Shown one piece after another: positions 2,216 through 16,761 of a stretch of 16,761 nucleotides of DNA. The position numbers were made by a program, and so were the translations under genes. The notes under the pieces are model-generated. The model was not told where the DNA came from, searched no databases, and saw only the letters and a list, made by a program, of their open reading frames with translations. The stretch's first letter is position 1. Each line of letters opens with the position of its first letter. This stretch comes from a virus. The stretch lies in the IMG/VR virus record IMGVR_UViG_3300029881_000057, one strand, 5' to 3'.

Positions 2216-2232
2216 ATACTATTCTCCTTTCA

Positions 2233-3012
2233 TCACCAAAGTCCAAAGAATAAGTCGCTGAACTCCTCAATAACTAACATATCAATGTTCAAAAAGGTTT
2301 CCCTAAACTTATTCAAAAGACTGCTAAAACTTTCTGTTCCTTGTTTTCCAACAAGTGTTTCAAGATAATCCTCTGTTGTATCTACATTACTTGTTGTTTC
2401 TTCTTTGTCACTATAACCACTAGCATTTTTCTCTGTATTATTTACTTCTGCGTTATCAGTTCCGTTCACATTATCAGTTATTTTCCTTGCGTTTGTTAAG
2501 TACGTTTCATTCTCAACACCAGTCAAAGCTCCTTGTGGTGTATCACTGTACAAATCTTTTTTATTTTCGTCACTGTTTGTTGTTCTATTAGTAGTTCCGT
2601 TACTTGTAATATTAGTGTCTCTGTTACCAGTAGTATCTCTGTTTCCACTAGCTGTCTCATTTTCTGTTCTTTTATGTTCTCTAGTTAAGTCCACATCGTG
2701 CATTGGGTTAAACTCAATCTTAGCACTTTCATACAACTGATTGTAGTAAGGCATAATCTCTTCAAGCCTTGTATTCATCCAAAGCGTCCATATACCAACT
2801 GTTTCACAACAAATTTCTCTCATATAATAGTGTTTCAAAATCTTTGAACACAATACACTTCTGTAAGCTTCATCAAAGAACGGTGCTTTACTCGTAAATA
2901 TCTTATTCCACGAACCTGTGATAATGTTATCAACATCACCACTACCACCACTTACTTCAAGTCCACTTTTGCTTTCACAAATGAACCTAACTTGTGTAGT
3001 ATATTTACTCAT
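2233..3012 (-). CDS. Lower collar protein (phi29 gp11-like, assigned by position)
   Basis: It lies directly downstream of the upper collar gene and overlaps it by 8 nt (ATGAGTAA). I prefer the ATG at 3012, which has AGGGGG 8 nt upstream, over the GTG at 3021. The size (259 aa) and gene order match phi29 gene 11. The middle of the protein is N/T/D/E-rich and low in complexity. Confidence 0.55.
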   Translation of the reverse strand: MSKYTTQVRFICESKSGLEVSGGSGDVDNIITGSWNKIFTSKAPFFDEAYRSVLCSKILKHYYMREICCETVGIWTLWMNTRLEEIMPYYNQLYESAKIEFNPMHDVDLTREHKRTENETASGNRDTTGNRDTNITSNGTTNRTTNSDENKKDLYSDTPQGALTGVENETYLTNARKITDNVNGTDNAEVNNTEKNASGYSDKEETTSNVDTTEDYLETLVGKQGTESFSSLLNKFRETFLNIDMLVIEEFSDLFFGLW

Positions 3013-3901
3013 TACCTGCACCCCCTATCGTATCAGCACCAGCGTCCTCTGGAATAGTATCATTGTCAACCTGCTGAAAATCTTCACGATAATTAACCTC
3101 AATATTAGTTCCGAACATTGCGTTAATCTTTTCAACAGCCTGTCTCCTACTTTCCAATCTACTGTACCTACTAGCAATAGTACCACCTTGATTTCTTGTT
3201 ACTTCATCAGTTATCAATCTTTCTTTCTTCTGAATATTGATATTACTGATACCAAGATAAGTCAACGCTTCATTCCATATTTGCGTTTTTAAAGTATAAA
3301 GTTTGTCACATACATAAGGTGCATCAGTTTTCAAAACTTTTAACGCATTTAAGTCCAAGTTCTTATCACCAAAAATAAACGGTGCATTACCCTCAAACTC
3401 TTTATAAAGGTTCAAAAGTGTCAATCTTTGTTTTTCTGTTCCTTGCACCAACACTGGTGTTTTCTGTGCATTGGCATTAACATCAATTATCCTGTCAAGA
3501 TTATACAATCTTCTAGCAAACATTTTAACATCAAGAATACTATTTGTATGCAGATAATTGTTCCATATAATCACGCTGTTACTTTCTTTCAATAACTTCT
3601 GATAGTTGTTATATCCAGAGTACGCTCTGCGTAAAATAGGATTGCCATATACATCAAGTCTACCATTTGTGATACAGTCCAAGCACAAGTTACCAAGTAC
3701 ATCATCATTAAAGTACACCATGCAACCAGTTTCAAATAGGTGTAATTCAAGATACCTAGCGTCAACACTAGCAGGTAAATTCTTCCATTCAAACATGGAA
3801 ATAGCCAACTCTGTTAGCCTATTAAGGTACTGCATATATGTCAGATTGTTTAGTGTAGCACTATCACAAAATATATCTGTAATACTACGCTTTCTACCCA
3901 T
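3005..3901 (-). CDS. Upper collar / portal (connector) protein, phi29 gp10-like
   Basis: MGRKRS...YLNRLTELAISMFEWKNLP and NANAQKTPVLVQG...LYKEFEGNAPFIFG closely parallel remembered phi29 gp10 segments (LAYQLFEWENLPP; NQNAQKTPVLIRA...YNQYEGNAPVIFA). 298 aa. Confidence 0.9.
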   Translation of the reverse strand: MGRKRSITDIFCDSATLNNLTYMQYLNRLTELAISMFEWKNLPASVDARYLELHLFETGCMVYFNDDVLGNLCLDCITNGRLDVYGNPILRRAYSGYNNYQKLLKESNSVIIWNNYLHTNSILDVKMFARRLYNLDRIIDVNANAQKTPVLVQGTEKQRLTLLNLYKEFEGNAPFIFGDKNLDLNALKVLKTDAPYVCDKLYTLKTQIWNEALTYLGISNINIQKKERLITDEVTRNQGGTIASRYSRLESRRQAVEKINAMFGTNIEVNYREDFQQVDNDTIPEDAGADTIGGAGNE

Positions 3902-3919
3902 AACTAATTCTCACCACCT

Positions 3920-5479: not shown

Positions 5480-5507
5480 ACAAACACTCCTTTACATAAT
5501 TTTTCTA

Positions 5508-5542
5508 GTAAGGGTATACCAAAAAAACTGATACACCCTTAC
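5508..5542 (-). other. Intercistronic hairpin after the capsid gene
   Basis: GTAAGGGT (5508-5515) pairs with ACCCTTAC (5535-5542), between the capsid stop (5553) and the tail knob start (5479). There is no clear U-tract. It is a possible mRNA stabiliser or attenuator that would favour capsid over tail stoichiometry. Confidence 0.3.
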
Positions 5543-5552
5543 AGTTAAAATC

Positions 5553-6962
5553 TTATCCCTTGTTAAGAGTAACAGTTGCGTCAACTTCAGTAGAACCATT
5601 AATGGTAGTAGTCGCGGTGTAAGTAGTTCCGTTAATCTCTGCAACAAGTGTGATGTCTGTTCCAACCTGTGAAGTCGGGATAATGAGTCCACCGTATTTC
5701 TGAACAGCGATACCAGCAGTTGTAAGTGCTTCTGTCTGAACAAAGTTCACATTCTGCGGATTAAGACCTGCTTCTTCAAAGTCAGCACTGATAGTAAATA
5801 CAGTAGCAACATCGCTTTCATCTTTAGCGTCCACATGAACAGTAACAGTTGCAGGCAAAGCAACGTCTGCGGCAGAGGTGACAAACACAACAGCATTTGC
5901 GAACGGAGAATTTGACACCGTTTTCCACGTATGGTAGAAGTAGTTCCAGTACAAACCAGAAGCAACATACTTCTCTGTGAATTTGTTGTTGTTGTCGTAA
6001 ACCTGAAACCAGTTATCGTCCAAAATAACTGCCTTTACATTAGCTAACAGTGCTAACTCGTCTGCTGTTACTTCTTCGATACCATCAGAGTTTGCTCTGA
6101 TAATATCAAAACGCTCATTGTCAAAATCAGTCCAGTTGTCAATGAGGAACAATCTACCCATGAAGTCAGCCTTATCCATATTGAACGCACTTGCAAGCAC
6201 ATTTACGTCAAACTGTGCATTGAACATAGCGTCCATGAAGATAACCTGTCTTTCTTTAGGTGTGTTAGTTTTAACTCCTACTTCATTGTACTCACTTGAC
6301 ATAAATGGTAACAGGTTAGATGTTCCTCTAAACTGTACAGCCGCTTCGCTAAGGTCTGCACCTGCTCCAATAGAAGTAGGGTACATTTTTCCGTGGCTGA
6401 TTGCCTTAATAAGCAGGTACTTAAACAGAAGAAATTCATCATACTCTGCGGCGGTGTAAACAGCGTCTACAATCTTAGCGATAAGGTTCTGAACCCCCTC
6501 AATGCTAAGAAACGCCTGCCGTAAGTCCTCGTCCTGAATTGTAACAGGGTACATCACTCTCCAGTTCATAACGTGGAAAGCTGAACGAACATCTGGGATA
6601 GTTCTCTGGAACTCACGTTTAGACGCTTTTTCAACATTGAAGTCAACAGCTTTTGCGATAGATACGAAAATATCCTCTACAGTTTCTCCGTACTCAATGT
6701 AACCTTTCTTGAGGATAGAGTAAGGGTTGTTAAAGGTTGCACTCTGTACACGCACGATTGCAATTCTGTTTACCAAAGCATTGATAAACTGGTTTGCAAA
6801 TGCAGGTGTACCATAGATGATTTCTCCCACTTTGGGAATGTCATTGACAGTTTCAACTTCAGGAACGTTCTGCTGATAATCATAAGAAGCGTTCTGTCGG
6901 ATTACGTTGAGAATATCAATGGTTGACGCATTAAGCGTACTGTTTTCAATTCTTCTTGCCAT
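5553..6962 (-). CDS. Major capsid protein (phi29 gp8-like) with a C-terminal Ig-like (BIG2-type) domain
   Basis: 469 aa, immediately downstream of the scaffold gene. The last ~95 aa form a beta-rich T/V/A segment (VTVHVDAKDESDVATVFTISADF...GTDITLVAEINGTTYTATTTINGSTEVDATVTLNKG), typical of the Ig-like domain that decorates the phi29 capsid protein. Good RBS (AAGAAAGGAAGA). Confidence 0.85.
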   Translation of the reverse strand: MARRIENSTLNASTIDILNVIRQNASYDYQQNVPEVETVNDIPKVGEIIYGTPAFANQFINALVNRIAIVRVQSATFNNPYSILKKGYIEYGETVEDIFVSIAKAVDFNVEKASKREFQRTIPDVRSAFHVMNWRVMYPVTIQDEDLRQAFLSIEGVQNLIAKIVDAVYTAAEYDEFLLFKYLLIKAISHGKMYPTSIGAGADLSEAAVQFRGTSNLLPFMSSEYNEVGVKTNTPKERQVIFMDAMFNAQFDVNVLASAFNMDKADFMGRLFLIDNWTDFDNERFDIIRANSDGIEEVTADELALLANVKAVILDDNWFQVYDNNNKFTEKYVASGLYWNYFYHTWKTVSNSPFANAVVFVTSAADVALPATVTVHVDAKDESDVATVFTISADFEEAGLNPQNVNFVQTEALTTAGIAVQKYGGLIIPTSQVGTDITLVAEINGTTYTATTTINGSTEVDATVTLNKG

Positions 6963-6995
6963 GATTTAATCTTCCTTTCTTAATTTAATTTATTG

Positions 6996-7313
6996 CTAAA
7001 CTGTTGTAAACAGTTCTGCAAACGTCTTAGGTTTTGGCGTGTCATCTGGTTTTGGTGTTCCATCTGGTTTAGGTGGTGGAGTGTTATCATCTGGACTGGA
7101 ACTGTAAAAACGCTCTGTATACTTTCTGCGCCATTCTGTGTCATTTTCTTCGTATTTAGCTTTCCAGTCTGTTCCGTCTCCTTGTGCTTTTGTTTCTAAG
7201 TCAGATAGTGTGTCAGTAATATCTTCAATGAATGTGATTGTTTCATCGTCAGTCTGTCCACCAACTCTGGCTTTAACTTCTGCAAGAATTTCTTCCCTAG
7301 TTTTTACTGCCAT
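6996..7313 (-). CDS. Scaffolding protein (gp7-like)
   Basis: Small, acidic and helical, directly upstream of the capsid gene. It has a DWKAKYEENDTEWRRKYTERF motif common in Firmicute phage scaffold proteins. I moved the start to the ATG at 7313 (MAVKTREE...), which has RBS AAAGGAGAG 5 nt upstream. The track start at 7358 has no RBS. Confidence 0.7.
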   Translation of the reverse strand: MAVKTREEILAEVKARVGGQTDDETITFIEDITDTLSDLETKAQGDGTDWKAKYEENDTEWRRKYTERFYSSSPDDNTPPPKPDGTPKPDDTPKPKTFAELFTTV

Positions 7314-7326
7314 AATGCTCTCCTTT

Positions 7327-7476
7327 CTATGAGATTTTTGTCCACTTTGTAGTGTCAAATAATACGCTTAATCTTAATGAAAGAGGGTGATTAGGTGAAA
7401 GCATAATTACACCATCTTCTGTTACCATAATAGTAAATCCTTCTTCATGTTTATAAGTACCTGCTTTGAACGGCAT
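7327..7476 (-). CDS. Small hypothetical protein (49 aa), absent from the supplied ORF track
   Basis: Hand translation gives MPFKAGTYKHEEGFTIMVTEDGVIMLSPNHPLSLRLSVLFDTTKWTKIS. RBS GAAAGGAGAA lies 5 nt upstream of the ATG at 7476. The ORF exactly fills the gap between the tail lysin and scaffold genes, and its stop overlaps the scaffold RBS. Confidence 0.5.
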   Translation of the reverse strand: MPFKAGTYKHEEGFTIMVTEDGVIMLSPNHPLSLRLSVLFDTTKWTKIS

Positions 7477-7495
7477 ATCTGTTTCTCCTTTCTTA

Positions 7496-8533
7496 TTAGT
7501 AATGGTATTTTATCCACATCCATATAGGCATTTTCTTTTTACGTGTAGACGTTGTACCACCGCCACCACCGCCTGCGGAATAAAATCTATACATAAGTAC
7601 AGCATTGTGTAACGCTTGTTGTCTTGATAAATAGTACATTGGTTCTGTTTCCCATTCGACTATTGAAGTGTCATTTGCGTGAGTTAAAATATATTCAAGT
7701 GCTTCATACGCAAATTCAATTCTTTCATCAAGAGCAGATACACCTGGTCTTTCCCAACAAGTGCAAAACGCTTCTGTTAATGAAGCAACATTAGTTGAAC
7801 TAGATGTTAGAAATTCTGTTAATGAAGATATTCCATCAAATGTACCCATCCAATCGTTTTCTACAACTAAATATTGCATTTGTCCATTTGGACTTGTATC
7901 TTCATAACCATTTTCACTTAACCATGTTAATAGTGCGTCACGTCTTGAACCGTCCCATTGAAATAAACCAAAAGCACCACCGCCTATTTGAGAAAGTGTG
8001 GGGTTTATGTGACTTTCTCTCCAAGCGTTACCTGCTAAAGATGCAATTACATAAGCACTTGCACCGTATCCAGTTGCGCCACCATCACCGTATCTAAACA
8101 GTCTAGGAAAAGAACGCTCATAGTCTGGATTTCCGCCACTTGAACCTATACTAACTTGATTAGCAAGTGGAGCGTTATCTGTATGCGCTCCCATGAAAAC
8201 ACCTTTACCACTTCCACCACGATAGCACATTTCTGTGTGTCCACTTGATAGACCTATATCTCCTGCTAGGTATTCACCACTTGCGTCAACTTCTGTAAAC
8301 CCTAAGCGCAAAAGTTCGGACGCTTCTGAATAAGTGGTAAAGGCATTACTATTTGGTGCATAAGATGGTGTTTCAAAACCACCTGCTAGTAACGCATAGT
8401 TTATAAATGAAGAACAATCGTAGTATGTTATACCGCCAACTGTTTGTGCGTTACGATATGATTGTGAATAACCAACATTAGGTGCATTACACGTTTCAAT
8501 CGCCCATGAATATGCACGATTTATGTCTGGCAT
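7496..8533 (-). CDS. Tail-associated peptidoglycan hydrolase (functional analogue of phi29 gp13): N-terminal papain-fold (Amidase_5 / NlpC-P60-like) domain plus a C-terminal phage tail lysozyme-like domain
   Basis: The N-terminus has YYDCSSF...SSGHTEM (Cys/His pair, resembling the Pal/Amidase_5 YDCSS motif). aa ~160-290 contain LAGNAWRESHINP...GGGAFGLFQWDGSRRDALLTWL, resembling the GN..ES...G.GL.QW..R motif of phage tail lysozymes. The C-terminus is GGGGGG followed by TTSTRKKKMPIWMWIKYHY. Confidence 0.7.
   Translation of the reverse strand: MPDINRAYSWAIETCNAPNVGYSQSYRNAQTVGGITYYDCSSFINYALLAGGFETPSYAPNSNAFTTYSEASELLRLGFTEVDASGEYLAGDIGLSSGHTEMCYRGGSGKGVFMGAHTDNAPLANQVSIGSSGGNPDYERSFPRLFRYGDGGATGYGASAYVIASLAGNAWRESHINPTLSQIGGGAFGLFQWDGSRRDALLTWLSENGYEDTSPNGQMQYLVVENDWMGTFDGISSLTEFLTSSSTNVASLTEAFCTCWERPGVSALDERIEFAYEALEYILTHANDTSIVEWETEPMYYLSRQQALHNAVLMYRFYSAGGGGGGTTSTRKKKMPIWMWIKYHY
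7509..7517 (+). promoter_or_regulatory. Isolated perfect DnaA-box 9-mer (TTATCCACA) inside coding sequence
   Basis: Exact match to the consensus, within the 3' end of the tail lysin gene. Function is doubtful. It is listed because a second perfect copy and two near-copies occur at 10759-10791. Confidence 0.2.
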
Positions 8534-8542
8534 AGGTTACAC

Positions 8543-9265
8543 TTATGCTAACATCTGGTTTACAAGTTTTTGAATAGCAGAATAGTCATAACCTGCGGTG
8601 GTAAGTTTCTGCTTTCTTGTATCACCATTTCCCCACTTACCTGCAATTACTTCTCTTGCAATTTCTCCGTTAGATTTTAACTCTTTTCCAGACAAAATAG
8701 CGTTTACTTTTGCCTGTACAGTGTTGTAATCATAACCTGCTTCTGTAAGAAGCTTTTTGCGGGTATCTCCGTTACCCCATTTACCTGCAATTACTTCCCT
8801 TGCAACTGTATCAACTGATACGTCTGGTGTAACTTCTGTGTTCTGTCCTGCGTATCTAAGATGTACATCCCATCCACCGGAATACTCGTAATAATCTCTG
8901 ATACAGATTTCCTTTCCAGTCTGGTCACCAGTTTTACCACCAGTTACCCTTCCTTTTTCATTGATTGAAGCGTGAGCAATCTGCGTATTGTTGATACTCA
9001 TAACAACATGATGCTGTGTTTTAAGATGTACGTCTCCTGGCAACCACGGTGCTTTACAATCAACAAAACCTGCTTTACGCAACTGTGCTTCCAGATTACC
9101 AGTCCATGAGTACGGTGATACATTAAAACCTGCTTTATTGAGTGCAGTTCCAACAAGAGAAGAACAGTCATAATCTTGTCCATTTCTGTGCGTCTGGTCA
9201 TAACCATGTGTGTTATCGTTTGCGGTATCAATCATGAACTGAACCGCTTTCATAATGTTAGGCAT
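8543..9265 (-). CDS. Endolysin: papain-fold (Amidase_5 / NlpC-P60-like) catalytic domain plus two CW_7 cell-wall-binding repeats
   Basis: The N-terminus has DYDCSSLVG...TQHHVVM (Cys/His). The C-terminus has two 48-aa-period repeats, REVIAGKWGNGDTRK.LLT.AGYDY..VQ..VN, matching the Cpl-7-type CW_7 motif (GxWGNGxxRxxxLxxAGYDxxxVQxxVN). The gene lies directly downstream of the holin. RBS AAGGAGGA. Confidence 0.85.
   Translation of the reverse strand: MPNIMKAVQFMIDTANDNTHGYDQTHRNGQDYDCSSLVGTALNKAGFNVSPYSWTGNLEAQLRKAGFVDCKAPWLPGDVHLKTQHHVVMSINNTQIAHASINEKGRVTGGKTGDQTGKEICIRDYYEYSGGWDVHLRYAGQNTEVTPDVSVDTVAREVIAGKWGNGDTRKKLLTEAGYDYNTVQAKVNAILSGKELKSNGEIAREVIAGKWGNGDTRKQKLTTAGYDYSAIQKLVNQMLA
8549..8806 (-). 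repeat. Two CW_7 repeat units within the endolysin gene
   Basis: Repeat 1 spans aa 154-191 (nt 8693-8806) and repeat 2 spans aa 202-239 (nt 8549-8662). The similarity is also visible at the DNA level (ccccatttacctgcaattacttc in both). Confidence 0.85.
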
Positions 9266-9268
9266 AAT

Positions 9269-9628
9269 TTAGTCCTCCTTTTTAATATCGGAAATGTGAA
9301 ATAGTTCCATAAGTTTTTTCGGCAGAATGTCGGGGTTAATCTTGCAAATGTTTTCAAGTATAGATACCAATTCAGTTGTACACACATATAGAATAATGAT
9401 AGGAAGAATTGATATTCTAAGCTGAAAACCTATTCTAGTACCCTGTGTGTCAACTAACCAAGCTACAAAGTAACATAATACGAATCCTACCTTTTTGAAA
9501 AGACCGTCACGCAATTTTGCTGATTGAATGTCTTTGTTTTTAACCGCTGTTATGATACCACTAATTAGGTCTAAAGCATTGAAAACCAGTGCAATAATTA
9601 TGGGGTAAAACTGTTCCATTCTTTTCAC
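9269..9628 (-). CDS. Holin (three-TM, TcdE / phage_holin_4-like)
   Basis: 119 aa with three hydrophobic segments. The FNALDLISGIITAVKNK..QSAKLRDGLFKKVGF motif is typical of the toxin-secretion / phage-lysis holin family. It is the first gene after the promoter and lies immediately upstream of the endolysin. Confidence 0.85.
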   Translation of the reverse strand: MKRMEQFYPIIIALVFNALDLISGIITAVKNKDIQSAKLRDGLFKKVGFVLCYFVAWLVDTQGTRIGFQLRISILPIIILYVCTTELVSILENICKINPDILPKKLMELFHISDIKKED

Positions 9629-9652: not shown

Positions 9653-9681
9653 ATTATATCATATTACTAGACAAATTGCAA
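9653..9681 (-). promoter_or_regulatory. Sigma-A-type promoter for the holin-lysin-structural operon
   Basis: The minus strand reads TTGCAA (9681-9676), a 17-nt spacer, then TGATATAAT (extended -10, TATAAT at 9658-9653), about 25 nt upstream of the holin RBS. Confidence 0.65.
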
Positions 9682-9696
9682 TAGGTATGTTATAAT
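9668..9696 (+). promoter_or_regulatory. Sigma-A-type promoter for the packaging ATPase gene
   Basis: TAGACA (9668-9673), a 17-nt spacer, then TGTTATAAT (TATAAT at 9691-9696), followed by RBS AGGAAAGGAAGTG and the ATG at 9723. Its -35 element lies inside the spacer of the divergent minus-strand promoter, and the reverse is also true. Confidence 0.65.
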
Positions 9697-9722: not shown

Positions 9723-10757
9723 ATGGGTAAGTATTATGACGGTACTAAACTATTGTCTATGCTTGACATAAATGGATACAAACCAGAAATATATATGTGT
9801 ACAACTAATCGTACTGGTGGTAAAACTACTTACTTTGGTAGATTATGTATAAACAGGTTCTTAGATAAGGGCGAAAAATTTGGTCTTATTTATAGATATA
9901 ATTATGAACTTGATGATGTTGTAGATAAGTTCTATAAAGACTTAGGTAGTTTGTTCTTTAGTGGTCATGAAATGACTAGCAAACGTAGGGCAAGTGGTAT
10001 ATTCCATGAATTGTTTTTAGATGATAAAAGCTGTGGATATGCTTTAAGCCTTAATAGTGCAGACCAGATTAAAAAATATAGTCACTTATTTTCAGATATT
10101 ATGCGTATGATATTTGATGAATTTCAGAGTGAAACTAATCACTATTGTAATGATGAAGTTAAGAAGTTACTTAGTGTTCACACTTCTATTGCTAGAGGAC
10201 AAGGTGAACAGGTTAGATATGTTCCAGTTTATATGCTTAGCAATCCAGTAAGTATTATAAACCCGTACTACGTTGAAATGGGAATAAGTGCTAGGCTTAA
10301 AGATGATACCAAGTTCCTACGTGGAGACGGTTTTGTGCTTGAACAAGGTTTTATATCTAGTGCAAGTGAGGAGCAGAAAAGTAGTGGATTTAATAGAGCT
10401 TTTGCAAAGAACGCTTATGTTGCTTATAGTAGTGAGTGTGTTTATCTTAATGATAACAAAAGTTTTGTTGATAAGCCAACTGGTAAAAACCGATATATTT
10501 GTACACTAAAATACAAAGGTACTGATTTTGGTTTGAGAGAATTTACAGAGGACGGTTTTATCTATTGTGATGATAAACCAGATGTTACATTTAAGACTAA
10601 AATAACAGTAACAACAGCAGACCATGAAGTGAACTATGTTATGTTAAAAAGAAATGACTTCTTTTTGTCAAACCTTAGATATTTATTTGAACGTGGTGCG
10701 TTCAGATTTAAGGATATGAGGTGTAAAGAAGCGGTACTTAGTGCATTGAGTTACTAA
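9723..10757 (+). CDS. DNA encapsidation (packaging) ATPase, phi29 gp16-like
   Basis: Walker A TNRTGGKTT, Walker B MIFDEFQSE, and MLSNPVSIINPYY parallel remembered phi29 gp16 (GARGIGKS, IVFDEFIRE, CLSNAVSVVNPYF). 344 aa. It is the only convincing plus-strand gene. Confidence 0.9.
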   Translation: MGKYYDGTKLLSMLDINGYKPEIYMCTTNRTGGKTTYFGRLCINRFLDKGEKFGLIYRYNYELDDVVDKFYKDLGSLFFSGHEMTSKRRASGIFHELFLDDKSCGYALSLNSADQIKKYSHLFSDIMRMIFDEFQSETNHYCNDEVKKLLSVHTSIARGQGEQVRYVPVYMLSNPVSIINPYYVEMGISARLKDDTKFLRGDGFVLEQGFISSASEEQKSSGFNRAFAKNAYVAYSSECVYLNDNKSFVDKPTGKNRYICTLKYKGTDFGLREFTEDGFIYCDDKPDVTFKTKITVTTADHEVNYVMLKRNDFFLSNLRYLFERGAFRFKDMRCKEAVLSALSY

Positions 10758-10758
10758 G

Positions 10759-10791
10759 TTATCCACATTAAATTGTGGAAAGTGTTGATAA
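10759..10791. promoter_or_regulatory. Cluster of three DnaA-box-like 9-mers (also foldable as an RNA hairpin)
   Basis: TTATCCACA (10759-10767, + strand, perfect consensus). TGTGGAAAG (10774-10782) is CTTTCCACA on the minus strand, with 2 mismatches. TGTTGATAA (10783-10791) is TTATCAACA on the minus strand, with 1 mismatch. The cluster starts 2 nt after the ATPase stop codon. Confidence 0.4.
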
Positions 10792-10805
10792 CTTTTAGGT
10801 ATCTT

Positions 10806-10903
10806 CTCATGTGTCCACCAATGAACGGGTAGGATAGCACACTTGAAACGATAGTGCCTACACCGCTTGTCGTTTTCGCTGAACGCTTTGTTTGGTACAT
10901 GAG
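10806..10903 (+). ncRNA. Structured RNA candidate in the ATPase 3' region (possible prohead-RNA analogue or 3'UTR-derived sRNA)
   Basis: There is no ORF on either strand. Long-range closing helix: CTCATGT (10806-12) pairs with ACATGAG (10897-903), and ACCAA (10817-21) pairs with TTGGT (10892-96), separated by a 4-nt GUCC bulge. An inner imperfect hairpin spans ~10828-10864 and its 13-nt loop carries CUUGAAAC. The element is bounded upstream by the 10759-10791 hairpin and downstream by the terminator. Confidence 0.4.
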
Positions 10904-10922
10904 TTAAAGATATAAATAGAAC

Positions 10923-10960
10923 AGCAGGGATACGAACTTAGTTCGCCCCTGCTTTTCTTA
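10923..10960. terminator. Bidirectional rho-independent terminator between the convergent ATPase (+) and polymerase-dUTPase (-) units
   Basis: AGCAGGG (10923-29) pairs with CCCTGCT (10947-53), with an inner CGAAC/GTTCG stem. It is followed by TTTTCTTATT on the plus strand and by GTTCTATTTAT on the minus strand. Confidence 0.75.
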
Positions 10961-10969
10961 TTGTGTTAA

Positions 10970-11407
10970 TTATTTTTCACCAGTTGAACCAAAACCACCA
11001 CGATTTACTTCTGATAATTTTGTTACTTCAACAATGCCAACAGGAGGTTGATGTTCAATAATTCTAAACTGGCATATTCTTGTGTTCTTAGGTATGCTTA
11101 TATTCCTAGTAGCGTATGCTGGAAAATGCCATTCATCGTTGTTACCGCAATATGTTTCATCAATAAGACCAACACTATTTGCTTGAATTATACCATATTT
11201 CTTAAATGTTGAACTTCTAGGTATAACTAATGCTTCATAGCCTTTAGGTAACATCATAGCAACTCCAAGTGGAATTAGTTTGAACTCTCCTACTTCAAGT
11301 GTAACATCTTCTGCTATACGCAAGTCAATCCAATCTCCATCACTAAGAATTTCAATCTTATCCATACCATCTTTTACATATTTAATGTTAATAGTTTTAA
11401 CTTCCAT
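10970..11407 (-). CDS. dut: dUTP diphosphatase (trimeric dUTPase)
   Basis: Canonical motifs are present: VIPRSS (motif 2), GLIDETYCGNNDEW (motif 3) and C-terminal RGGFGSTG (motif 5). 145 aa. The gene starts 3 nt after the polymerase stop. Confidence 0.9.
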   Translation of the reverse strand: MEVKTINIKYVKDGMDKIEILSDGDWIDLRIAEDVTLEVGEFKLIPLGVAMMLPKGYEALVIPRSSTFKKYGIIQANSVGLIDETYCGNNDEWHFPAYATRNISIPKNTRICQFRIIEHQPPVGIVEVTKLSEVNRGGFGSTGEK

Positions 11408-11410
11408 AAT

Positions 11411-13426
11411 TTACCTCATTTCATACGGTGTGTCGATAAGTAGGATACCGCCACGTATTCTCTTTGGTCTTAATTTTCCTGGTACTTTTAGTCCTACTCT
11501 AAAATCACTAAGATTTCTCTTTATTGGTTTACCAGTTTCCTTTTCAAATAAGAACTCTTTTTCATCTTCTGTCCATTCCTTAAACACATTTGTTGTTTTA
11601 TCTGTGTACCCTTTAATGTCAGCGTTTCCATCAAGTGACTTTTGAAATAAGTCTTTACATCTTTGTGGCATACCTGCACACTTAATGTTATTGTATGGGT
11701 TGTCTATTGGTTCACAATCTTCCTTAACAACGTGTTCAATATAAGTCTTTTGTCTTGTGAAAACTGCTATATCCCAACAGCTTTCAAGTTTCCAACAACA
11801 GAAGTCTTTATCATGTACCTTAATACCAACAATCTCATTAGGTTCAAGGTCGCAATGTATGCTGTCTGTATCTGCATATATAAAACCTCTTTTGTCTTTA
11901 CCATGGTAGTTCTTCTGAGCGGCTCTAATAGTAAAGTTTCTTGCGTAACTCGTGATAGCTGAACCAACTGGTATATAACCCGGCTTTTTGTCTGCTTGTG
12001 CAACAGGTAGAAAGCCTATGGTTTTATCCTCTTTGACGTAAGCAAGTTTGAAACTACTATCCATACTACTTGCCATTTTACCGTACAAATTGTTGAGGAA
12101 CAACTTTGCCAACTCACGCAACGCACCTTTGCTTTCCAATTTGATTTTCTTATACTTATCAATGTACTCGTCAAAGATACCTATTTCACTATAAAACCAA
12201 CAACCGTCTAATATCTCAAAGTCAACAAGTTCATAGTGTTCTTTCAATAACTCATAGTCAGTCATTGTTAAAACTAACTCTACTCTAGTGTCGTGAATGT
12301 TACCGTCTTTATCAGTATAATGTGTATAATATTCTCCTGTCCTTTTGTCGTACACATCAGACGTTTCAAGTGCTTCTGTACCTTTGTACAGTAATGACGA
12401 TTTTATTTGTATAAATGGTAATTTATCTGGTTTAATGTAGAACCTTGTCTTTACTCTAACAAAGTAATACTTATCTTCATCAAGTGCGACGTCTGGAATA
12501 AAATTTCCTTTCCAAAATCGTGGTACACCAATGGGATACCTATTTCCACTTTCACTACTCATCATACTAGGGTACAAAGAATTAACATCTGCTGTCGTTC
12601 CGTTTGTAAATATATTGTTCTCTTTACCCTTTACTAGATAGCACCAACCCCCCCTATATGATTTACGGATATACTCTCCTGCGTTTGGGTATCTGTGTGC
12701 TTTCTCGTCAATCGTCATAGCGTACACATCTGGAAACATTTCGTTGTAATCAAGAGCGTTCTTTGTTGAGGACTTACAAATTGACTTGTATTCTTCCAAA
12801 CAACATGAACCTATTGTCAATTTGTTATGCCCTTGTTGGAACATTATTTCTAACGCTTCTTTGACTACAAGAACATCATTAGCTATGTACTTTCTTTCTT
12901 CGTCTGTTATAGTACAACCTGCATACCTAAAACCAGTGTACTCCATATCAAGTTTCTTGTGCTTTGTACCAAAACTTTCTCCGATACGTTTTACACTGAA
13001 TGGTAGTAGTTTTAACGAATCTCTTATCTCAATAAAGTGATTGTTTACCTTTATGATAATGCTGTACCACATACCTTTATCAGATATGCTATACTTGAAT
13101 GATTTATTTTCCATGTATTTTTCTGGTAACCATTCTACATCATTTTCGTTTTCTCCTACCTTTTTATATGCTTGCTTAAAACCCTTATCAACTAACAAAT
13201 ACGATAACCAAAATGCACCATCAAATTTCAAATTATGATAGTACGCTACTATGTTGCATTTTTGTGCTAGAAAATAATCGAATTGTTCTCCAATGCTATG
13301 AAATATGTTTACATCTTCTGTGAACAATTCAACGGACGCACTAGCCCATACTTCTGTGTTTACCTGTCCTTTGTAAACGGTTGTCTCAAAGTCACACATG
13401 AAGTAACGATACTTTTTTACTCTCAT
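11411..13426 (-). CDS. Protein-primed family-B DNA polymerase (phi29 gp2-like)
   Basis: ExoI FMCDFETT, ExoII YYHNLKFDGAFWL, ExoIII YIANDVLVV, motif A DVNSLYPSMM, motif B KLFLNNLYGKMAS, motif C YADTDSIH, and KTYIE. Each is nearly identical to remembered phi29 polymerase motifs. 671 aa. Confidence 0.95.
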   Translation of the reverse strand: MRVKKYRYFMCDFETTVYKGQVNTEVWASASVELFTEDVNIFHSIGEQFDYFLAQKCNIVAYYHNLKFDGAFWLSYLLVDKGFKQAYKKVGENENDVEWLPEKYMENKSFKYSISDKGMWYSIIIKVNNHFIEIRDSLKLLPFSVKRIGESFGTKHKKLDMEYTGFRYAGCTITDEERKYIANDVLVVKEALEIMFQQGHNKLTIGSCCLEEYKSICKSSTKNALDYNEMFPDVYAMTIDEKAHRYPNAGEYIRKSYRGGWCYLVKGKENNIFTNGTTADVNSLYPSMMSSESGNRYPIGVPRFWKGNFIPDVALDEDKYYFVRVKTRFYIKPDKLPFIQIKSSLLYKGTEALETSDVYDKRTGEYYTHYTDKDGNIHDTRVELVLTMTDYELLKEHYELVDFEILDGCWFYSEIGIFDEYIDKYKKIKLESKGALRELAKLFLNNLYGKMASSMDSSFKLAYVKEDKTIGFLPVAQADKKPGYIPVGSAITSYARNFTIRAAQKNYHGKDKRGFIYADTDSIHCDLEPNEIVGIKVHDKDFCCWKLESCWDIAVFTRQKTYIEHVVKEDCEPIDNPYNNIKCAGMPQRCKDLFQKSLDGNADIKGYTDKTTNVFKEWTEDEKEFLFEKETGKPIKRNLSDFRVGLKVPGKLRPKRIRGGILLIDTPYEMR

Positions 13427-14115
13427 AGTGGACTACTAAAATCTTCTTCCTGTTCCATTGCGTCCATCATTTCAGCCTTAAACAGTGGTCCTGCTTCTGG
13501 TAAATAGTTTAACATTTCAGACATATACTGTGTTAGCTTATCTTGTGAATAAACTATCTGATATGTTACAATCAAACCTGCTTCTGCACCGTCGTTTAAC
13601 ATTGTTGCTACATCATGTGCGTCATTTGTTGCTAATATTCTGTCCAACCATGAAAGTAATAAATTACTAGCGTGTTCATTAAACTGTCTCACATGAGCCT
13701 TAAAACCACTGATAACAACAGCATCAAAAAATGATACATCTTCTGATATGTTCTCTGGTGGAACAAAACCAGGTGTATTAGTTGGTTCTTGTACTGGCTC
13801 TGCTAGTCTGTATTTTCTAGTTTCTACCGCTTTCTTTGCTCTCAAAGAGCGTTCCAACTTTACACCCTCTGTTGCGGGTACTATTTCTCCTTCTGTTGCT
13901 AAACCACCATATAGCGCTTTCTGGTACAACTTCTCAGGTGTTAATTTTGCAAGTTTTCGCACACTTGCTTGTGTTACACGTTTAGGTCTTTGTGGTAACA
14001 CATCTTCACCAAATTGATACCCACGTTTTTCTGCTCTTCTTATAAACTGTTTAATACGCTTGACTTGTTTAGAGTAAGCACGTTCCGTAGGTGTTTGTTT
14101 TCGTCTTTTTGCCAT
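13423..14115 (-). CDS. Terminal protein (putative, phi29 gp3-like)
   Basis: It lies immediately upstream of the polymerase and is translationally coupled to it (ATGA overlap at 13423-13426). The N-terminus is basic (AKRRKQTPTERAYSKQVKRIKQFIRRAEKRGYQF), resembling the phi29 TP N-terminus (AEYARLVKNTKAKIARTKKKYGVDL). The C-terminus is acidic. I prefer the ATG at 14115 (RBS AGGGGTGA) over the GTG at 14124. Confidence 0.6.
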   Translation of the reverse strand: MAKRRKQTPTERAYSKQVKRIKQFIRRAEKRGYQFGEDVLPQRPKRVTQASVRKLAKLTPEKLYQKALYGGLATEGEIVPATEGVKLERSLRAKKAVETRKYRLAEPVQEPTNTPGFVPPENISEDVSFFDAVVISGFKAHVRQFNEHASNLLLSWLDRILATNDAHDVATMLNDGAEAGLIVTYQIVYSQDKLTQYMSEMLNYLPEAGPLFKAEMMDAMEQEEDFSSPL

Positions 14116-14140
14116 AGCGTTCACCCCTATAAATTAAATA

Positions 14141-14178
14141 AGAGAGACACTCTAGTATGGTACTAAGAGTGCCTCTCC
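14141..14178 (-). terminator. Intra-operon attenuator / terminator hairpin between the SSB-like and terminal protein genes
   Basis: On the minus strand, GAGAGGCACUCU pairs with AGAGUGUCUCUC (12 bp including one G-U that would be an A-C mismatch on the plus strand), with an 11-nt loop, followed by UUAUUUAAUUUAU. Confidence 0.55.
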
Positions 14179-14203
14179 ATTTATTAACTGTTACACTCTG
14201 AAC

Positions 14204-14560
14204 TTATGCAAGACGTTCAACGTCCAGTACGCAGTTAATGTAATCACGGTTTGACTTTGTTTTACCAGAAGTCTTGATGACTGTGAACGGTTTACCTTTC
14301 ATAATGATTGAAATATCATTAATACTTCTCTTGAACGTAGCCGACTGGCAACTGTATACCAGCTTTTCCGGTGTAATGATTGACATCACTTCAACAACCT
14401 CGCCACTGTCCTCTTTGACGTCCTCAAACATCAGAACACCGTCAACTGTAATGTGTTCTCCGTCCTCAACGTCTTTCATTGAAACGATTGATGGTGCGAT
14501 TGTCATAAGGTACAGCTCTACTTCGTTGAATTCTCTGCTCATTTCTTTAATGTTAATCAT
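14204..14560 (-). CDS. Single-stranded DNA-binding protein (phi29 p5-like, putative)
   Basis: 118 aa, in the phi29 gene 5 position (between the p6-like gene and the terminal protein). VVEVMSIITPEKLVYSCQSATFKRSINDISIIM...FTVIKTSGKTKSNRDYINCVL resembles remembered phi29 p5 ([32 protein letters not shown]...FKVKVVQGTSSKGNVFFSLQL). RBS AAAAGGAGAA. Confidence 0.5.
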   Translation of the reverse strand: MINIKEMSREFNEVELYLMTIAPSIVSMKDVEDGEHITVDGVLMFEDVKEDSGEVVEVMSIITPEKLVYSCQSATFKRSINDISIIMKGKPFTVIKTSGKTKSNRDYINCVLDVERLA

Positions 14561-14626
14561 GGTATTGTTCTCCTTTTAATTAAATATTTTGTTGTGTTTG
14601 CTGTTTAGGTTTTACCTGCTTCTGTG

Positions 14627-14935
14627 TTATTCGTTGCCTGCTTCTTCGTCACTGTTTGCACCATTTCTAGGCGGAAGCACTTTTGCATACTGGATAAAAT
14701 CCTGCTCTGTCATTCCGTACAAAGTTTCAATTTCTTCTTTGTCTACAATGTGTACCGCTTTGAGTGTCTCAGTTTCAAGCAACGGACGAACTTTCTTCAT
14801 CAGTGCTTCATCGTCCTTGTATGTACGTGGTACTGTAACAACCTTGTTACAAGGTTCGCCTGCCTGTACGTCCAGACACATTACGTTTGCTTTTGTTGCT
14901 ACTATTGTTCTTGTTACCATAGGTACTCTTGCCAT
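14627..14935 (-). CDS. p6-like double-stranded DNA-binding (histone-like) protein, copy 2
   Basis: 102 aa with an acidic tail. MARVPMVTRTIVATKANVMCLDVQAGE... and LKAVHIVDKEEIETLYGMTEQDFIQYAKV resemble remembered phi29 p6 (MAKMMQREITKTTVNVAKMVMVDGEV...; VQVVSVEPNTEVYELPVEKFLEVATV). I moved the start to the ATG at 14935 (RBS AAAGGAGAA). The track extension to 14983 runs through a leader hairpin. Confidence 0.55.
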   Translation of the reverse strand: MARVPMVTRTIVATKANVMCLDVQAGEPCNKVVTVPRTYKDDEALMKKVRPLLETETLKAVHIVDKEEIETLYGMTEQDFIQYAKVLPPRNGANSDEEAGNE

Positions 14936-14976
14936 AATTTTGTTCTCCTTTCTGGCTTTGGTTTGTTTATAGTTTA

Positions 14977-14992
14977 GGTACATTATTGTACC
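14977..14992 (-). other. Leader stem-loop A (GGUACA-AUAA-UGUACC)
   Basis: A 6-bp stem with a 4-nt AUAA loop. It lies 2 nt downstream of tRNA-like element A and 42 nt upstream of the copy-2 p6-like start codon. Confidence 0.6.
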
Positions 14993-14994
14993 AG

Positions 14995-15090
14995 TGGACG
15001 GTATAGGATTTGAACCTATAATCTAGTGCTGACCAGACAAATGTTATAACACATTGTCACTAGGCAACTTGCCAATTGTTGCACCGTCCA
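14995..15090 (-). ncRNA. tRNA-like element A (near full-length, non-canonical anticodon arm)
   Basis: On the minus strand: acceptor TGGACGG (15090-15084) pairs with CCGTCCA (15001-14995). U8-G9 follow. The D-arm is CAAC-AATTGGCAA-GTTG. The T-arm is TATAGG-TTCAAAT-CCTATA and abuts the acceptor 3' strand. The central arm is an over-long interrupted helix (CTAGTG/CACTAG plus GACAATGT/ACATTTGTC) capped by a 7-nt loop GUUAUAA. No CCA is encoded. Total length is 96 nt. Confidence 0.6.
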
Positions 15091-15165
15091 GAGGGGTGAG
15101 GGTGTACTGTTAAATGAGTACACCACTCTGGCAACGTAACTGTTATTTATCTTTGGTACTATTTT

Positions 15166-15194
15166 ATTGTAGCATATTGTACTCGAAAAGTCAA
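15166..15194 (-). promoter_or_regulatory. Internal sigma-A-type promoter upstream of tRNA-like element A and p6-like copy 2
   Basis: The minus strand reads TTGACT (15194-15189), a 17-nt spacer, then TGCTACAAT (TACAAT at 15171-15166). The predicted start near 15158 gives a leader of roughly 220 nt. Confidence 0.7.
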
Positions 15195-15207
15195 CACTTT
15201 CTTTAAA

Positions 15208-15456
15208 TTATTTTGAGTAAAAATGTTCAGATAAAATATATTTCTTGTACTGTTTAACAATAACGTCTGCTACAATTCTACTTGATAAACCTGTTGACAG
15301 TTGTACAGCTAAATTGTTAATGGTGTAATGCCAAATCCAACAACCTACTGGTTGAATATCAACAATTAGTGTGTCATCAACCGCGTGCACAGATAAATCT
15401 CCTTTTATACGTCGTTTTAACTGTTTTTTGAGTGCATTTGTGAAAAATCTTTCCAT
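15208..15456 (-). CDS. Hypothetical early protein (82 aa)
   Basis: Strong RBS (GAAAAGGAGAA) 7 nt upstream of the ATG. It lies co-directionally in the early operon. The basic N-terminus (KKQLKRRIK) carries no recognisable motif. Confidence 0.6.
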   Translation of the reverse strand: MERFFTNALKKQLKRRIKGDLSVHAVDDTLIVDIQPVGCWIWHYTINNLAVQLSTGLSSRIVADVIVKQYKKYILSEHFYSK

Positions 15457-15504
15457 GATAACATTCTCCTTTTCTGTTCTATTTATTTTGTTGTCAAGGT
15501 TCTC

Positions 15505-15567
15505 GTGTACATTTGTACACTAAAGGGTGTATAGTGTCGAAACTATAATCGTGCCTGTCACGCACCC
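15505..15567 (-). ncRNA. Structured leader element C (degenerate tRNA-like three-way structure plus stem-loop)
   Basis: On the minus strand, GGGTG (15567-63) pairs with CACCC (15529-25) and encloses two hairpins: CGTG-ACAGG-CACG and TATAGT-TTCGAC-ACTATA, the second abutting the 3' strand. Four nt downstream lies hairpin GTGTACA-AA-TGTACAC (15520-15505). The RBS and the ATG at 15456 follow. Confidence 0.45.
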
Positions 15568-15633
15568 TAGTTTTGGTACTTTCGTGAAATTTTTAACAAT
15601 GATTTAATTTTTAGATTTCATTTTAGCTTCTTT

Positions 15634-15783
15634 CTATTTCTCCTTTTGTAAGCGTTTATAGACAATGTGCCACGCTTTACCTAGTTCATCATCTGAACCT
15701 AGTTGTTCGATAAGGTTGAATAATTTTGTCTCTACTTCTTGTAAATCATCAACAAGTATTTCTTGCTCATTTATTGATAGCAT
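15634..15783 (-). CDS. Small acidic hypothetical protein (49 aa), absent from the supplied ORF track
   Basis: Hand translation gives MLSINEQEILVDDLQEVETKLFNLIEQLGSDDELGKAWHIVYKRLQKEK. RBS AAAGGAGTG lies 5 nt upstream of the ATG at 15783. The protein is predicted helical and D/E-rich. Confidence 0.5.
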   Translation of the reverse strand: MLSINEQEILVDDLQEVETKLFNLIEQLGSDDELGKAWHIVYKRLQKEK

Positions 15784-15819
15784 ATTATCACTCCTTTAGT
15801 GAGGTACTAGGATTACCCC

Positions 15820-16110
15820 CTAGTCCTCAACTTTATTTACTGTACGTGGCGGTAATACTTTTGCAAGTCTGATAAAATCTTCCTCATCCATACCAAGTAA
15901 TACCTCTTTACAAGTCTGTTCTTCAATGTGTACAAGTTTAAGCGTGTCAGTCTGGAAAAGATTCTGAAGCTTTTTGAGTAAATCTTCATCACTGTATTTT
16001 CCGCCAATGTCATAAGTGCGTACTTGCACCTCTGCTGTTGTGACGTCAAGCGTCATAACCTGTGCTGTTGTCTGTTCTACTGTTCTCGTTACCATTCTCT
16101 TTCTTGCCAT
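15820..16110 (-). CDS. p6-like double-stranded DNA-binding (histone-like) protein, copy 1
   Basis: 96 aa and a clear paralogue of 14627..14935. Compare MARKRMVTRTVEQTTAQVMTLDV / MARVPMVTRTIVATKANVMCLDV, TLKLVHIEEQ...LLGMDEEDFIRLAKVLPPR / TLKAVHIVDK...LYGMTEQDFIQYAKVLPPR. RBS AAAAGGAGAA. Confidence 0.55.
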   Translation of the reverse strand: MARKRMVTRTVEQTTAQVMTLDVTTAEVQVRTYDIGGKYSDEDLLKKLQNLFQTDTLKLVHIEEQTCKEVLLGMDEEDFIRLAKVLPPRTVNKVED

Positions 16111-16144
16111 AATTTTTGTTCTCCTTTTCTGTTTGATTATATCT

Positions 16145-16160
16145 CACACCTTATGGTGTG
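16145..16160 (-). other. Leader stem-loop B (CACACC-AUAA-GGUGUG)
   Basis: A 6-bp stem with the same AUAA tetraloop as stem-loop A. It lies 3 nt downstream of tRNA-like element B and 35 nt upstream of the copy-1 p6-like start codon. Confidence 0.6.
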
Positions 16161-16163
16161 GAA

Positions 16164-16208
16164 TGGTAGGATAGGGTTTGAACCTATCCACGCACCGACT
16201 GCCTACCA
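16164..16208 (-). ncRNA. tRNA-like element B (acceptor/T-arm top-half minihelix)
   Basis: On the minus strand: TGGTAGG (16208-02), a 14-nt linker CAGTCGGTGCGTGG, the T-arm ATAGG-TTCAAAC-CCTAT, then CCTACCA (16170-64). This gives a 7-bp acceptor stem and a 5-bp T-stem with a 7-nt loop in exact tRNA geometry, with no D or anticodon arms. The T-arm matches element A at 17 of 18 nt. The 5' strand overlaps the TGG-TAG end of the upstream CDS. Confidence 0.6.
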
Positions 16209-16496
16209 ATATTTTGCGTGTTTACGCTCTGCGCATATTCCAGTTCCGTCCTCTGCGCATTTTTTCATATCATAGTACGAGACATCACCAAAATATTCCT
16301 TCAAAAACCACCCTATCTGCTTTCTTGTGGTTTGACTGTATGTTCCTGTACAAAATAGTACATATTGCCCACTAGAGTGTGGCACGGCTTGAATTACTAA
16401 AGTTGTGTAGCTTATGAAGTTTATTGTGCCATTATCTTCTATTGATACACGGCACTGTGCACTTTTATGATTTGTAAGCTTTCTTGTTTCTAACAT
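16203..16496 (-). CDS. Hypothetical early protein (97 aa), first gene of the early operon
   Basis: I moved the start to the ATG at 16496 (MLETRKL...), which has GAGAGG 7 nt upstream. The track start at 16538 lies inside the proximal promoter, upstream of its predicted transcription start. I cannot place this protein in a family. Confidence 0.6.
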   Translation of the reverse strand: MLETRKLTNHKSAQCRVSIEDNGTINFISYTTLVIQAVPHSSGQYVLFCTGTYSQTTRKQIGWFLKEYFGDVSYYDMKKCAEDGTGICAERKHAKYW

Positions 16497-16503
16497 TTTA
16501 CTA

Positions 16504-16538
16504 CCTCTCTTTCTTTGTTTCTGATATAAGTATATCAT
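16504..16538. repeat. 35-bp direct repeat, copy 1 (promoter -10 plus leader)
   Basis: CCTCTCTTTCTTTGTTTCTGATATAAGTATATCAT is identical to 16602-16636. The repeat period is 98 bp. Confidence 0.95.
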
Positions 16539-16705: not shown

Positions 16706-16740
16706 GGTTGTACAAGGGGTTTGGGGAACTGGTGTACCCC

Positions 16741-16761
16741 GTTTGAAGTTAAAGGGGCAAA
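16741..16761. repeat. Right inverted terminal repeat (21 bp)
   Basis: GTTTGAAGTTAAAGGGGCAAA is the exact reverse complement of nt 1-21. Confidence 0.95.

Follow-up and report, generated by a model that had tools for sequence, protein, structure and literature searches.

The window, by which we mean the whole stretch of DNA analysed here, is the 16.8 kb (16,761 nt) linear genome of IMG/VR record IMGVR_UViG_3300029881_000057. In it, an interval of 212 nt (10758-10969) lies between the stop codon of a gp16-type DNA encapsidation ATPase gene (10757, plus strand) and that of a convergent dUTPase gene (10970, minus strand), and this interval carries a structured RNA that we regard as a candidate equivalent of the prohead (packaging) RNA, or pRNA, of phage phi29. 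A preliminary description of the window had singled out the interval as gene-free and structured, and both properties were confirmed: the sole open reading frame (ORF) in it has 48 aa on the minus strand (10754-10900), and the whole interval folds on the plus strand with z=-4.5, the z-scores given here being measured against shuffled controls. This ORF was set aside, its substitution pattern being that of RNA helices and not that of a protein. The features of the locus are as follows.

9668..9696, plus: promoter of the ATPase-RNA unit (TAGACA, 17-nt spacer, TG-extended TATAAT; 11/12 consensus matches)
9723..10757, plus: gp16-type DNA encapsidation ATPase (PHROG 2150 terminase, 7e-52; PF05894 Podovirus_Gp16, 2e-32)
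10759..10791, plus: spacer hairpin, variable, separating the RNA from the ATPase stop, recognised from its fold
10798..10914, plus: conserved pRNA-like RNA core, 117 nt, proposed equivalent of phi29 pRNA domain I (conservation, pairing, compensatory changes)
10923..10962, plus: terminator, a two-tier hairpin AGCAGGG...CCCUGCU around CGAAC-UUA-GUUCG with the U-tract UUUUCUUAUU (fold, conservation)

Conservation, fold and covariation of the RNA core

Relatives of the window were collected through the ATPase protein, which yielded 80 contigs from IMG/VR and a gut contig from GenBank, and a further 80 contigs were recovered with the ATPase of the cultured Clostridium phage CS229P1, which is 69% identical to the window ATPase and whose host is Clostridium_Q symbiosum (strain DA229). 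The core was single-copy in 82/82 and 82/82 searched sources (~160 relatives), always on the ATPase strand and after the ATPase gene, and a search of the window with our own covariance model found no second copy. Its length is 113-119 nt among relatives, and it starts 0-55 nt past the ATPase stop, with one exception ~237 nt downstream; in many relatives the last G of the ATPase stop codon doubles as the first G of the conserved GGUAUCU. In MT835814 the downstream dUTPase gene is gone and the RNA still stands beside the ATPase gene, which indicates that the RNA travels with the ATPase gene. The gap carries no annotation in the GenBank record of CS229P1. The core with its immediate flanks (10797-10916) folds with z=-3.0 on the plus strand and -1.9 on the minus strand.

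The preliminary description had proposed covariation among relatives, folding of both strands against shuffles and a search for complementary loop pairs as checks, and each of them turned out in favour of a structured RNA. RNAalifold, given 68 distinct sequences, predicted 33 pairs, and compensatory changes occur in 23 of these. Two covariance models were built, R1 from the 68 sequences and R2 from 79 representatives, and the representatives, none more than 97.5% identical pairwise, were aligned to the covariance model (alignment A3). In this alignment 93.4% of cells, counted as cells and not as independent events, were paired, compared with 28-45% when the 3' partners were slid by 1-3 columns. 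Compensatory double changes were present in 29/38 pairs, and none of 500 shuffles reached any of the observed covariation measures. Cells with G·U numbered 228 and those with A·C 28, which sets the RNA on the plus strand; the minus-strand reading of the interval was ruled out by this ratio together with the weaker fold on that strand. The same ratio leaves unsupported the alternative, drawn from the earlier argument about the syntenic place of the phi29 pRNA, that the RNA belongs to the minus-strand polymerase operon. The core is a strongly constrained plus-strand RNA. The consensus fold consists of the following elements.

10799-10804 with 10908-10913, plus: helix A1, GGUAUCU/AGAUAU, almost without variation, its G·U pair constant
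10806-10812 with 10897-10903, plus: helix A2, nearly all pairs compensatory
10815-10817 with 10893-10895, plus: helix A3, nearly all pairs compensatory
10799..10817, plus: 5' strand of the A helix, with internal loops at 10805 and 10813-10814
10893..10913, plus: 3' strand of the A helix, with a conserved asymmetric loop UUAA at 10904-10907
10818-10825, plus: junction strand with conserved AAUGAA
10826-10833 with 10857-10865, plus: helix C, A10862 bulged, supported by covariation
10834-10839, plus: 5' bulge AUAGCA, 6 nt, putative counterpart of the pRNA CE (right-hand) loop, assigned from its pairing with the D loop
10840-10856, plus: hairpin E, CACU[UGAAACGAU]AGUG, joined directly to the 3' strand of helix C
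10866-10870, plus: U-rich linker
10871-10885, plus: hairpin D, CGUU[UUCGCUG]AACG, its loop including GCUG (10878-10881)
10886-10892, plus: return strand

The pairing of A1, A2 and A3 was 100%, 94% and 81%, respectively, and covariation supports the closing-helix pairs 10806-10811/10898-10903, 10812/10897 and 10815-10817/10893-10895. The closing helix described earlier (10806-10821 with 10892-10903) is therefore real and covaries; it is not the outer limit of the domain, as helix A1 lies outside it, and with A1 the true unit becomes 10798-10914, 117 nt. Instead of the single internal hairpin that had been described within this domain, the consensus has a single branch point, a three-way junction with two arms, each with compensatory support. 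Helix C changes, for example, from CGG/CCG to UGG/CCA and from GUAGG/CCUAC to ACAGG/CCUGU. All four pairs of hairpin E are compensatory (C-G to G-C in 35/79, for instance), and its loop motif UGAAA also occurs in the CS229P1 and CH17P1 clades. The stem of hairpin D is 99% paired, with 3/4 pairs compensatory. The minimum-energy fold of the single window sequence gives the outer helices correctly and an interior unlike the covariation-supported fold.

The outer helix GGUAUCU/AGAUAUA and the adjoining UUAA loop are almost invariant over ~160 genomes, and every other helix covaries. The invariance of A1 without covariation suggests that it is a site of sequence-specific protein recognition or of RNA processing.

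Within the bulge, U10835-C10838 (UAGC) is complementary to G10878-G10881 (GCUG) in the D loop. Among the 79 representatives 96.5% of the cells in these columns were paired, with double changes in 3/4 pairs; A3 was fitted to the nested structure of the model, and the bulge-loop columns lie outside that model. The bulge and the loop form 16 distinct haplotypes, including UAGC:GCUG, UAGC:GCUA, AAGC:GCUU, ACGC:GCGU, GCGC:GCGU, UUGC:GCAG, AUGC:GCGU and GUGC:GCAU, and the haplotype of the CS229P1 clade is CUGU:ACAG. When loops were permuted among haplotypes, each haplotype being counted once to damp phylogenetic inflation, 57 paired cells were observed against 42.8±2.8 expected (P<5e-5). In phi29, Watson-Crick pairing between the CE loop and the D loop of neighbouring pRNAs builds the prohead ring (PMC5066667; PMC12670572), and by this analogy a covarying complementarity of bulge and D loop is the hallmark of a pRNA.

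Transcription, genome context and look-alike RNAs

The only strong promoter that could serve the RNA is the one at 9668-9696, upstream of the ATPase gene, which fits the earlier proposal of co-transcription with gp16. A scan for sigma-70-like promoters found no comparable plus-strand promoter between 10430 and the RNA, so that the window RNA has no promoter of its own of the kind that makes the phi29 prohead RNA a discrete small RNA. A GATAAC/TATAAC box 6 nt upstream of the RNA was rejected, as, judged by eye, it has no -35 partner and is missing where the spacer hairpin is missing. Downstream of the RNA, the terminator that had been placed at 10923-10960 was upheld: the hairpin 10923-10953 folds strongly, the U-tract runs to ~10962, and relatives retain the two-tier hairpin and the U-run in different sequences with compensatory changes. 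A simple terminator scan made no call at 10923-10962 because the stem is bulged. This terminator probably ends both convergent transcription units and acts as a dispensable 'domain II'. The sequence 3' of it differs strongly among other relatives, and the dUTPase region (10970-11407, compared with L001 9260-9946) is absent or replaced in MT835814, the closest GenBank relative; the region past the terminator looks like a swap hotspot with the terminator as its boundary.

The hairpin at 10759-10791 folds as described earlier. It does not belong to the conserved element, since about one half of the relatives lack it and have the core directly against the ATPase stop; L018, L019 and L023 have an enlarged version, and in CS229P1 its place is taken by an unrelated hairpin that is palindromic. 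Variably present, absent or enlarged, the spacer hairpin behaves as though it were an insertion. The sequence GAAAGTGTTGA occurs both in the spacer (10779-10790) and in the -35 region of the opposite-strand early-leader promoter at 15191-15201 (inverted repeat I3).

The remaining genes of the window lie on the minus strand, the ATPase being the sole plus-strand gene of the genome.

173-9628, minus: tail proteins, GP10-type connector, major head protein, endolysin and holin
3005..3901, minus: portal (connector) gene (PF05352 Phage_connector (GP10), 6e-69; N-terminus MGRKRS)
10970-16538, minus: dUTPase, phi29-type DNA polymerase and small early proteins

The ATPase is 26.5% identical to phi29 gp16 across 95% of its length, and the portal is the presumed docking partner of the RNA. 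A terminal inverted repeat (1-53 and 16709-16761) matches exactly over roughly its first 20 bases (TTTGCCCCTTTAACTTCAAAC), and its presence at both ends marks the genome as complete, linear and presumably protein-primed.

The region 14984-15160, named in the preliminary description as a possible better pRNA candidate, was rejected as such, being a minus-strand promoter-driven leader with a long hairpin and a tRNA-like cloverleaf and not pRNA-like. The early-operon leader (14985-15190, minus strand) is non-coding, has the promoter TTGACT-17-TACAAT and folds with z=-3.5. Its cloverleaf combines an acceptor stem of 7 bp (UGGACGG/CCGUCCA) with a D arm, a middle arm that is extended, and a T arm (GGUUCAAAUCC; AUAGG[UUCAAAU]CCUAU). 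The leader is conserved in 43 related contigs, where the acceptor stem and the T stem show compensatory changes; ARAGORN recognises no tRNA in it, and Rfam matches the T arm only (15 bits). A second structured non-coding early stretch (15480-15620, minus strand; z=-2.8) is 95% conserved in MT835814 and includes the branched hairpin AGGGUGCGUGACAGGCACG...ACACCCUU.

RNAs resembling the core were found in other lineages. In Clostridium phage HM2, whose ATPase is 40% identical and whose genes are all on one strand, an RNA directly 3' of the ATPase gene has a C helix, a bulge GUAGU, a hairpin CUCCC[UAAC]GGGAG and a second hairpin AACGG[AAGACUACA]CCGUU; the bulge and the loop of this second hairpin are complementary (GUAGU:ACUAC). 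The clade of Hungatella phage CH17P1 (38 contigs) has the RNA immediately before the ATPase gene, with a separate TTGACA-17-TATAAT promoter in front of it, a position in which the RNA could also serve as an attenuator or leader. Ten distinct sequences of this clade gave 95.3% paired cells against 30-49% when slid, with 15/30 pairs compensatory, and the pair GCUA:UAGC changes in step (G-C to A-U in L103, C·A to U-A in L099). Its deeper branches (L108, L117) carry UGUCA:UGACG and UGUCA:UGACA; the evidence for these deeper branches, as for HM2, consists of single-sequence folds plus inspection. In L124, also of these branches, the E loop UUGAGU is identical to that of phi29, and the bulge GAACCA stands opposite UUGGUA. 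With model R2, the RNA next to the ATPase gene of L124 came first in 97 kb of DNA from other phages, a weak match (19.3 bits, E=0.044) and the sole cross-clade match of R2, and the pRNA family RF00044 of Rfam gave no match to the CH17P1-clade RNAs, L124 included.

The C. perfringens phages of the Guelinviridae (CPS2, phiCP7R, phiZP2, CPQ9) have a non-coding element of the same topology near the head genes and far from the ATPase gene. Its bulge CGCCA stands opposite the loop UGGC (GCCA:UGGC), it folds with z=-5.0, and there are 3 compensatory pairs among 4 sequences. The element is annotated as a hypothetical protein in CPS2 (40 aa) and cpx and is unannotated in other records. The pointer to it came from a structural descriptor written by hand, which asked for a C helix, a bulge, the hairpins E and D, a bulge and loop complementary over at least 4 bp, and a closing helix; the element was then checked separately. 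The descriptor itself was dropped as non-specific, as it gave dozens of matches per genome and missed both the window RNA and the phi29 pRNA. The positions of these RNAs are given below.

L084 13686-13790 and L089-L117 about 470-590: CH17P1-clade RNA, its U-run ending right before the ATPase ribosome-binding site
L087 16490-16594 (CPS2 record about 1368-1472), minus strand in the L087 copy, and L250-L252: C. perfringens element

A packaging role and its alternatives

Considering the fold and its surroundings together, we think it probable that 10798-10914 (plus strand) encodes an equivalent of the prohead RNA. The earlier idea of a pRNA equivalent is supported, at the level of sequence, by the Gp16 and GP10 genes, the pRNA order of helices, the covarying bulge-loop pair and the RKR motif of the portal. 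By architecture and context, the element would be filed as a sequence-unrelated variant of the prohead RNA.

From the analogy with phi29 we propose a plausible model for its action. Transcription from the promoter at 9668-9696 to the terminator near 10960 would yield an ATPase mRNA with the RNA at its 3' end, and the RNA would then be either cut out of this mRNA or used while attached; by either route, the supply of RNA would be tied to that of the ATPase. The bulge of one RNA copy may pair with the D loop of the next until the copies close into a ring, which, at the unique vertex of the prohead, would rest on the basic (RKR) N-termini that protrude from the portal. The outward closing helices, with the invariant GGUAUCU/AGAUAUA end and the UUAA loop, would dock the ATPase subunits, and the docked ATPase would translocate the protein-capped linear genome.

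Several points weigh against this assignment. RF00044 gave no match over the whole window at its gathering threshold (100 bits), and at E<=10 none on 10600-11100 or on a 133-nt slice (10790-10922), with phi29 as positive control scoring 145.4 bits. The preliminary description had likewise seen no primary-sequence similarity to phi29 pRNA, and since RF00044 finds nothing at any threshold tried, the window RNA is not a member of that sequence family, whose known range covers the Bacillus phages of the phi29, PZA, M2/Nf, B103, SF5, GA-1 and DLc1/Goe4 groups. In the reverse direction, R1 and R2 with filters off gave no match to the phi29 pRNA or to the RNAs of HM2, CH17P1 or CPS2; as the models miss the phi29 pRNA, homology to pRNA is unproven and the resemblance is architectural. 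The outermost kissing position is mismatched in 8/79 sequences, and the sequence fits an intermolecular ring and an intramolecular pseudoknot alike. The sequences are related, so that cell counts overstate the number of independent covariation events. With no promoter directly before it, a free small RNA would need processing, and as a 3' UTR element (5' UTR in the CH17P1 clade) the RNA could act in cis on the ATPase mRNA. The support for a packaging function is comparative throughout. Other Rfam families offered no competing identity: gathering and permissive searches returned only noise (rliE, rpsL_ricks, snoRNAs, SECIS_4), and a tRNA or tmRNA was rejected, with 0 ARAGORN genes in the window and no Rfam tRNA match in 10600-11100.

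The alternative that survives best, though we hold it to be unlikely, is a cis-acting element of the ATPase mRNA, either a stabiliser of its 3' end or a site of autoregulation through bound ATPase or another phage protein, in which the bulge-loop pair would be an intramolecular pseudoknot. It would account for the constant physical linkage of the RNA to the ATPase gene, whether in the 3' UTR (window, CS229P1 and HM2 clades) or in the 5' leader before the ribosome-binding site (CH17P1 clade), and for the lack of a separate promoter before the window RNA in our scan. However, a cis regulator that depends on its position would hardly be expected to function equally well in a 5' and in a 3' UTR, the C. 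perfringens look-alike is far from the ATPase gene and the phi29 pRNA is at the genome end. The varying position relative to the ATPase gene (3' UTR, 5' leader, elsewhere) thus argues for a trans-acting RNA and not for a position-specific cis regulator, and the element-for-element match with pRNA and the portal RKR would be left unexplained.

A trans-acting small RNA with no relation to packaging, such as a regulator of host or phage mRNAs, an anti-defence decoy or a protein scaffold, appears to us a good deal more doubtful still. Small RNAs derived from 3' UTRs are known in phages, and a conserved, structured, terminator-flanked RNA of small-RNA size would suit such a role. Yet the constraint falls on the helices and on the internal bulge-loop complementarity and not on a single-stranded seed, the conserved single-stranded stretches are short (AAUGA, UGAAA, UUAA), and the RNA strictly co-occurs with phi29-type portal and ATPase genes in several divergent lineages. 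Least credible of all, and hardly worth entertaining, is the absence of any functional RNA, with the interval, which does separate convergent transcription units and hold their shared terminator, serving as a DNA site (protein-binding, replication or packaging) or as the region where the convergent minus-strand operon is terminated, its structure being incidental, as double substitutions in 29/38 pairs and the great excess of G·U over A·C reveal selection on a plus-strand RNA, which moreover stays by the ATPase gene in MT835814, where the dUTPase gene is replaced.

A wider reading may also be considered, which we put forward tentatively and to which we would give somewhat less than even weight. 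The prohead RNA may be an ancestral, near-universal part of phi29-type motors that has diverged past sequence recognition, with at least four more lineages possessing it (the gut Clostridia clade, HM2, Hungatella CH17P1 and the C. perfringens Guelinviridae); here it would form the 3' end of the ATPase mRNA, and the motor protein may load in cis. Reviews treat pRNA as confined to phi29 and its close relatives among Bacillus phages (PMC11476376, 2024; PMC5066667, 2016), an Infernal-based search of 2025 added further Bacillus-phage pRNAs only (PMC12670572), and our full-text literature searches turned up no pRNA described from Clostridia or gut phages. The need for such an RNA in other phi29-like phages and the origin of the RNA-dependent motor are long-standing questions, and covariance models cannot bridge the sequence gap between these RNAs. 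A covariation-backed pRNA-like RNA in ~160 gut-phage contigs, with CS229P1 as a cultured representative, makes the question testable, and the three further look-alike lineages point the same way. An RNA embedded in the ATPase transcript would be a new genetic arrangement and hints at coupled assembly. Furthermore, RNA nanotechnology, now based on the phi29 scaffold, could draw on many natural three-way junctions and orthogonal kissing-loop pairs, and annotations could be corrected, for example that of the CPS2 RNA labelled as a 40-aa hypothetical protein.

Comparison with phi29 pRNA and other known systems

The phi29 pRNA (EU771092 201-320, minus strand) was folded with the same tool as a reference, its defining features being taken from PMC5066667. 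It has the same order of elements as the window RNA: a bulged A helix, a C helix, a bulge on the 5' side (GAUUAAACC), the E hairpin, a linker and the D hairpin. In both RNAs the E hairpin runs on its 3' side straight into the C helix, the branch point is a three-way junction with a U-rich linker (UUU in phi29), and bulge and D loop are complementary (AACC:GGUU in phi29, UAGC:GCUG in the window), a complementarity that covaries between phages. A 3' hairpin or terminator comes next in both, the window terminator being comparable to the dispensable domain II. The sizes also agree, with 117 nt for the window RNA and 117-120 nt for phi29 domain I (120 nt as folded). Both phages have a GP10 connector with RKR, a Gp16 ATPase, a polymerase of the protein-primed type and terminal inverted repeats. 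The connector N-terminus is MGRKRS in the window and MARKRS in phi29, with RKR at residues 3-5 in both, and a passage of PMC12084888 citing Atz 2007 and Cai 2008 gives RKR as indispensable for phi29 pRNA binding. Related connectors begin with MAKKKE (CS229P1), MSKRKS (CPS2) and MGRSKK (CH17P1).

The two RNAs differ in several dimensions and in their genetic setting. The D loop has 7 nt in the window and 5 nt (UGGUU, carrying GGUU) in the phi29 fold, the bulge 6 nt against about 9 in phi29, and the E loop 9 nt against 6. Whereas the phi29 pRNA gene lies at the left genome end behind its own promoter (A1), the window RNA lacks a separate promoter and stands at the 3' end of the ATPase transcription unit. 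Divergence in sequence is known within Bacillus as well, as the pRNAs there share only about 12% sequence similarity (PMC5066667).

Among unrelated RNAs, the ROOL and GOLLD homo-oligomers and the HIV DIS likewise have self-complementary loop-loop contacts able to drive homo-oligomerisation (PMC12990946); in contrast to the window RNA, their architecture is much larger or unrelated and they have no link to a phi29-type motor. Outside Bacillus, a pRNA was proposed in 1996 for Streptococcus phage Cp-1 (Martin et al., as cited in a passage of PMC6266182), and statements in the same literature hold that covariance models from Bacillus pRNAs cannot reliably find the Cp-1 pRNA (PMC6266182; in the Goe4 paper they fail even there). 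The hosts of the window lineage are gut Clostridia (Lachnospiraceae), as opposed to Bacillus for the phi29 family. The Cp-1 proposal of 1996 reportedly rested on a single-sequence fold; by comparison, covariation among more than 100 distinct sequences supports both the structure and the loop pairing of the window RNA.

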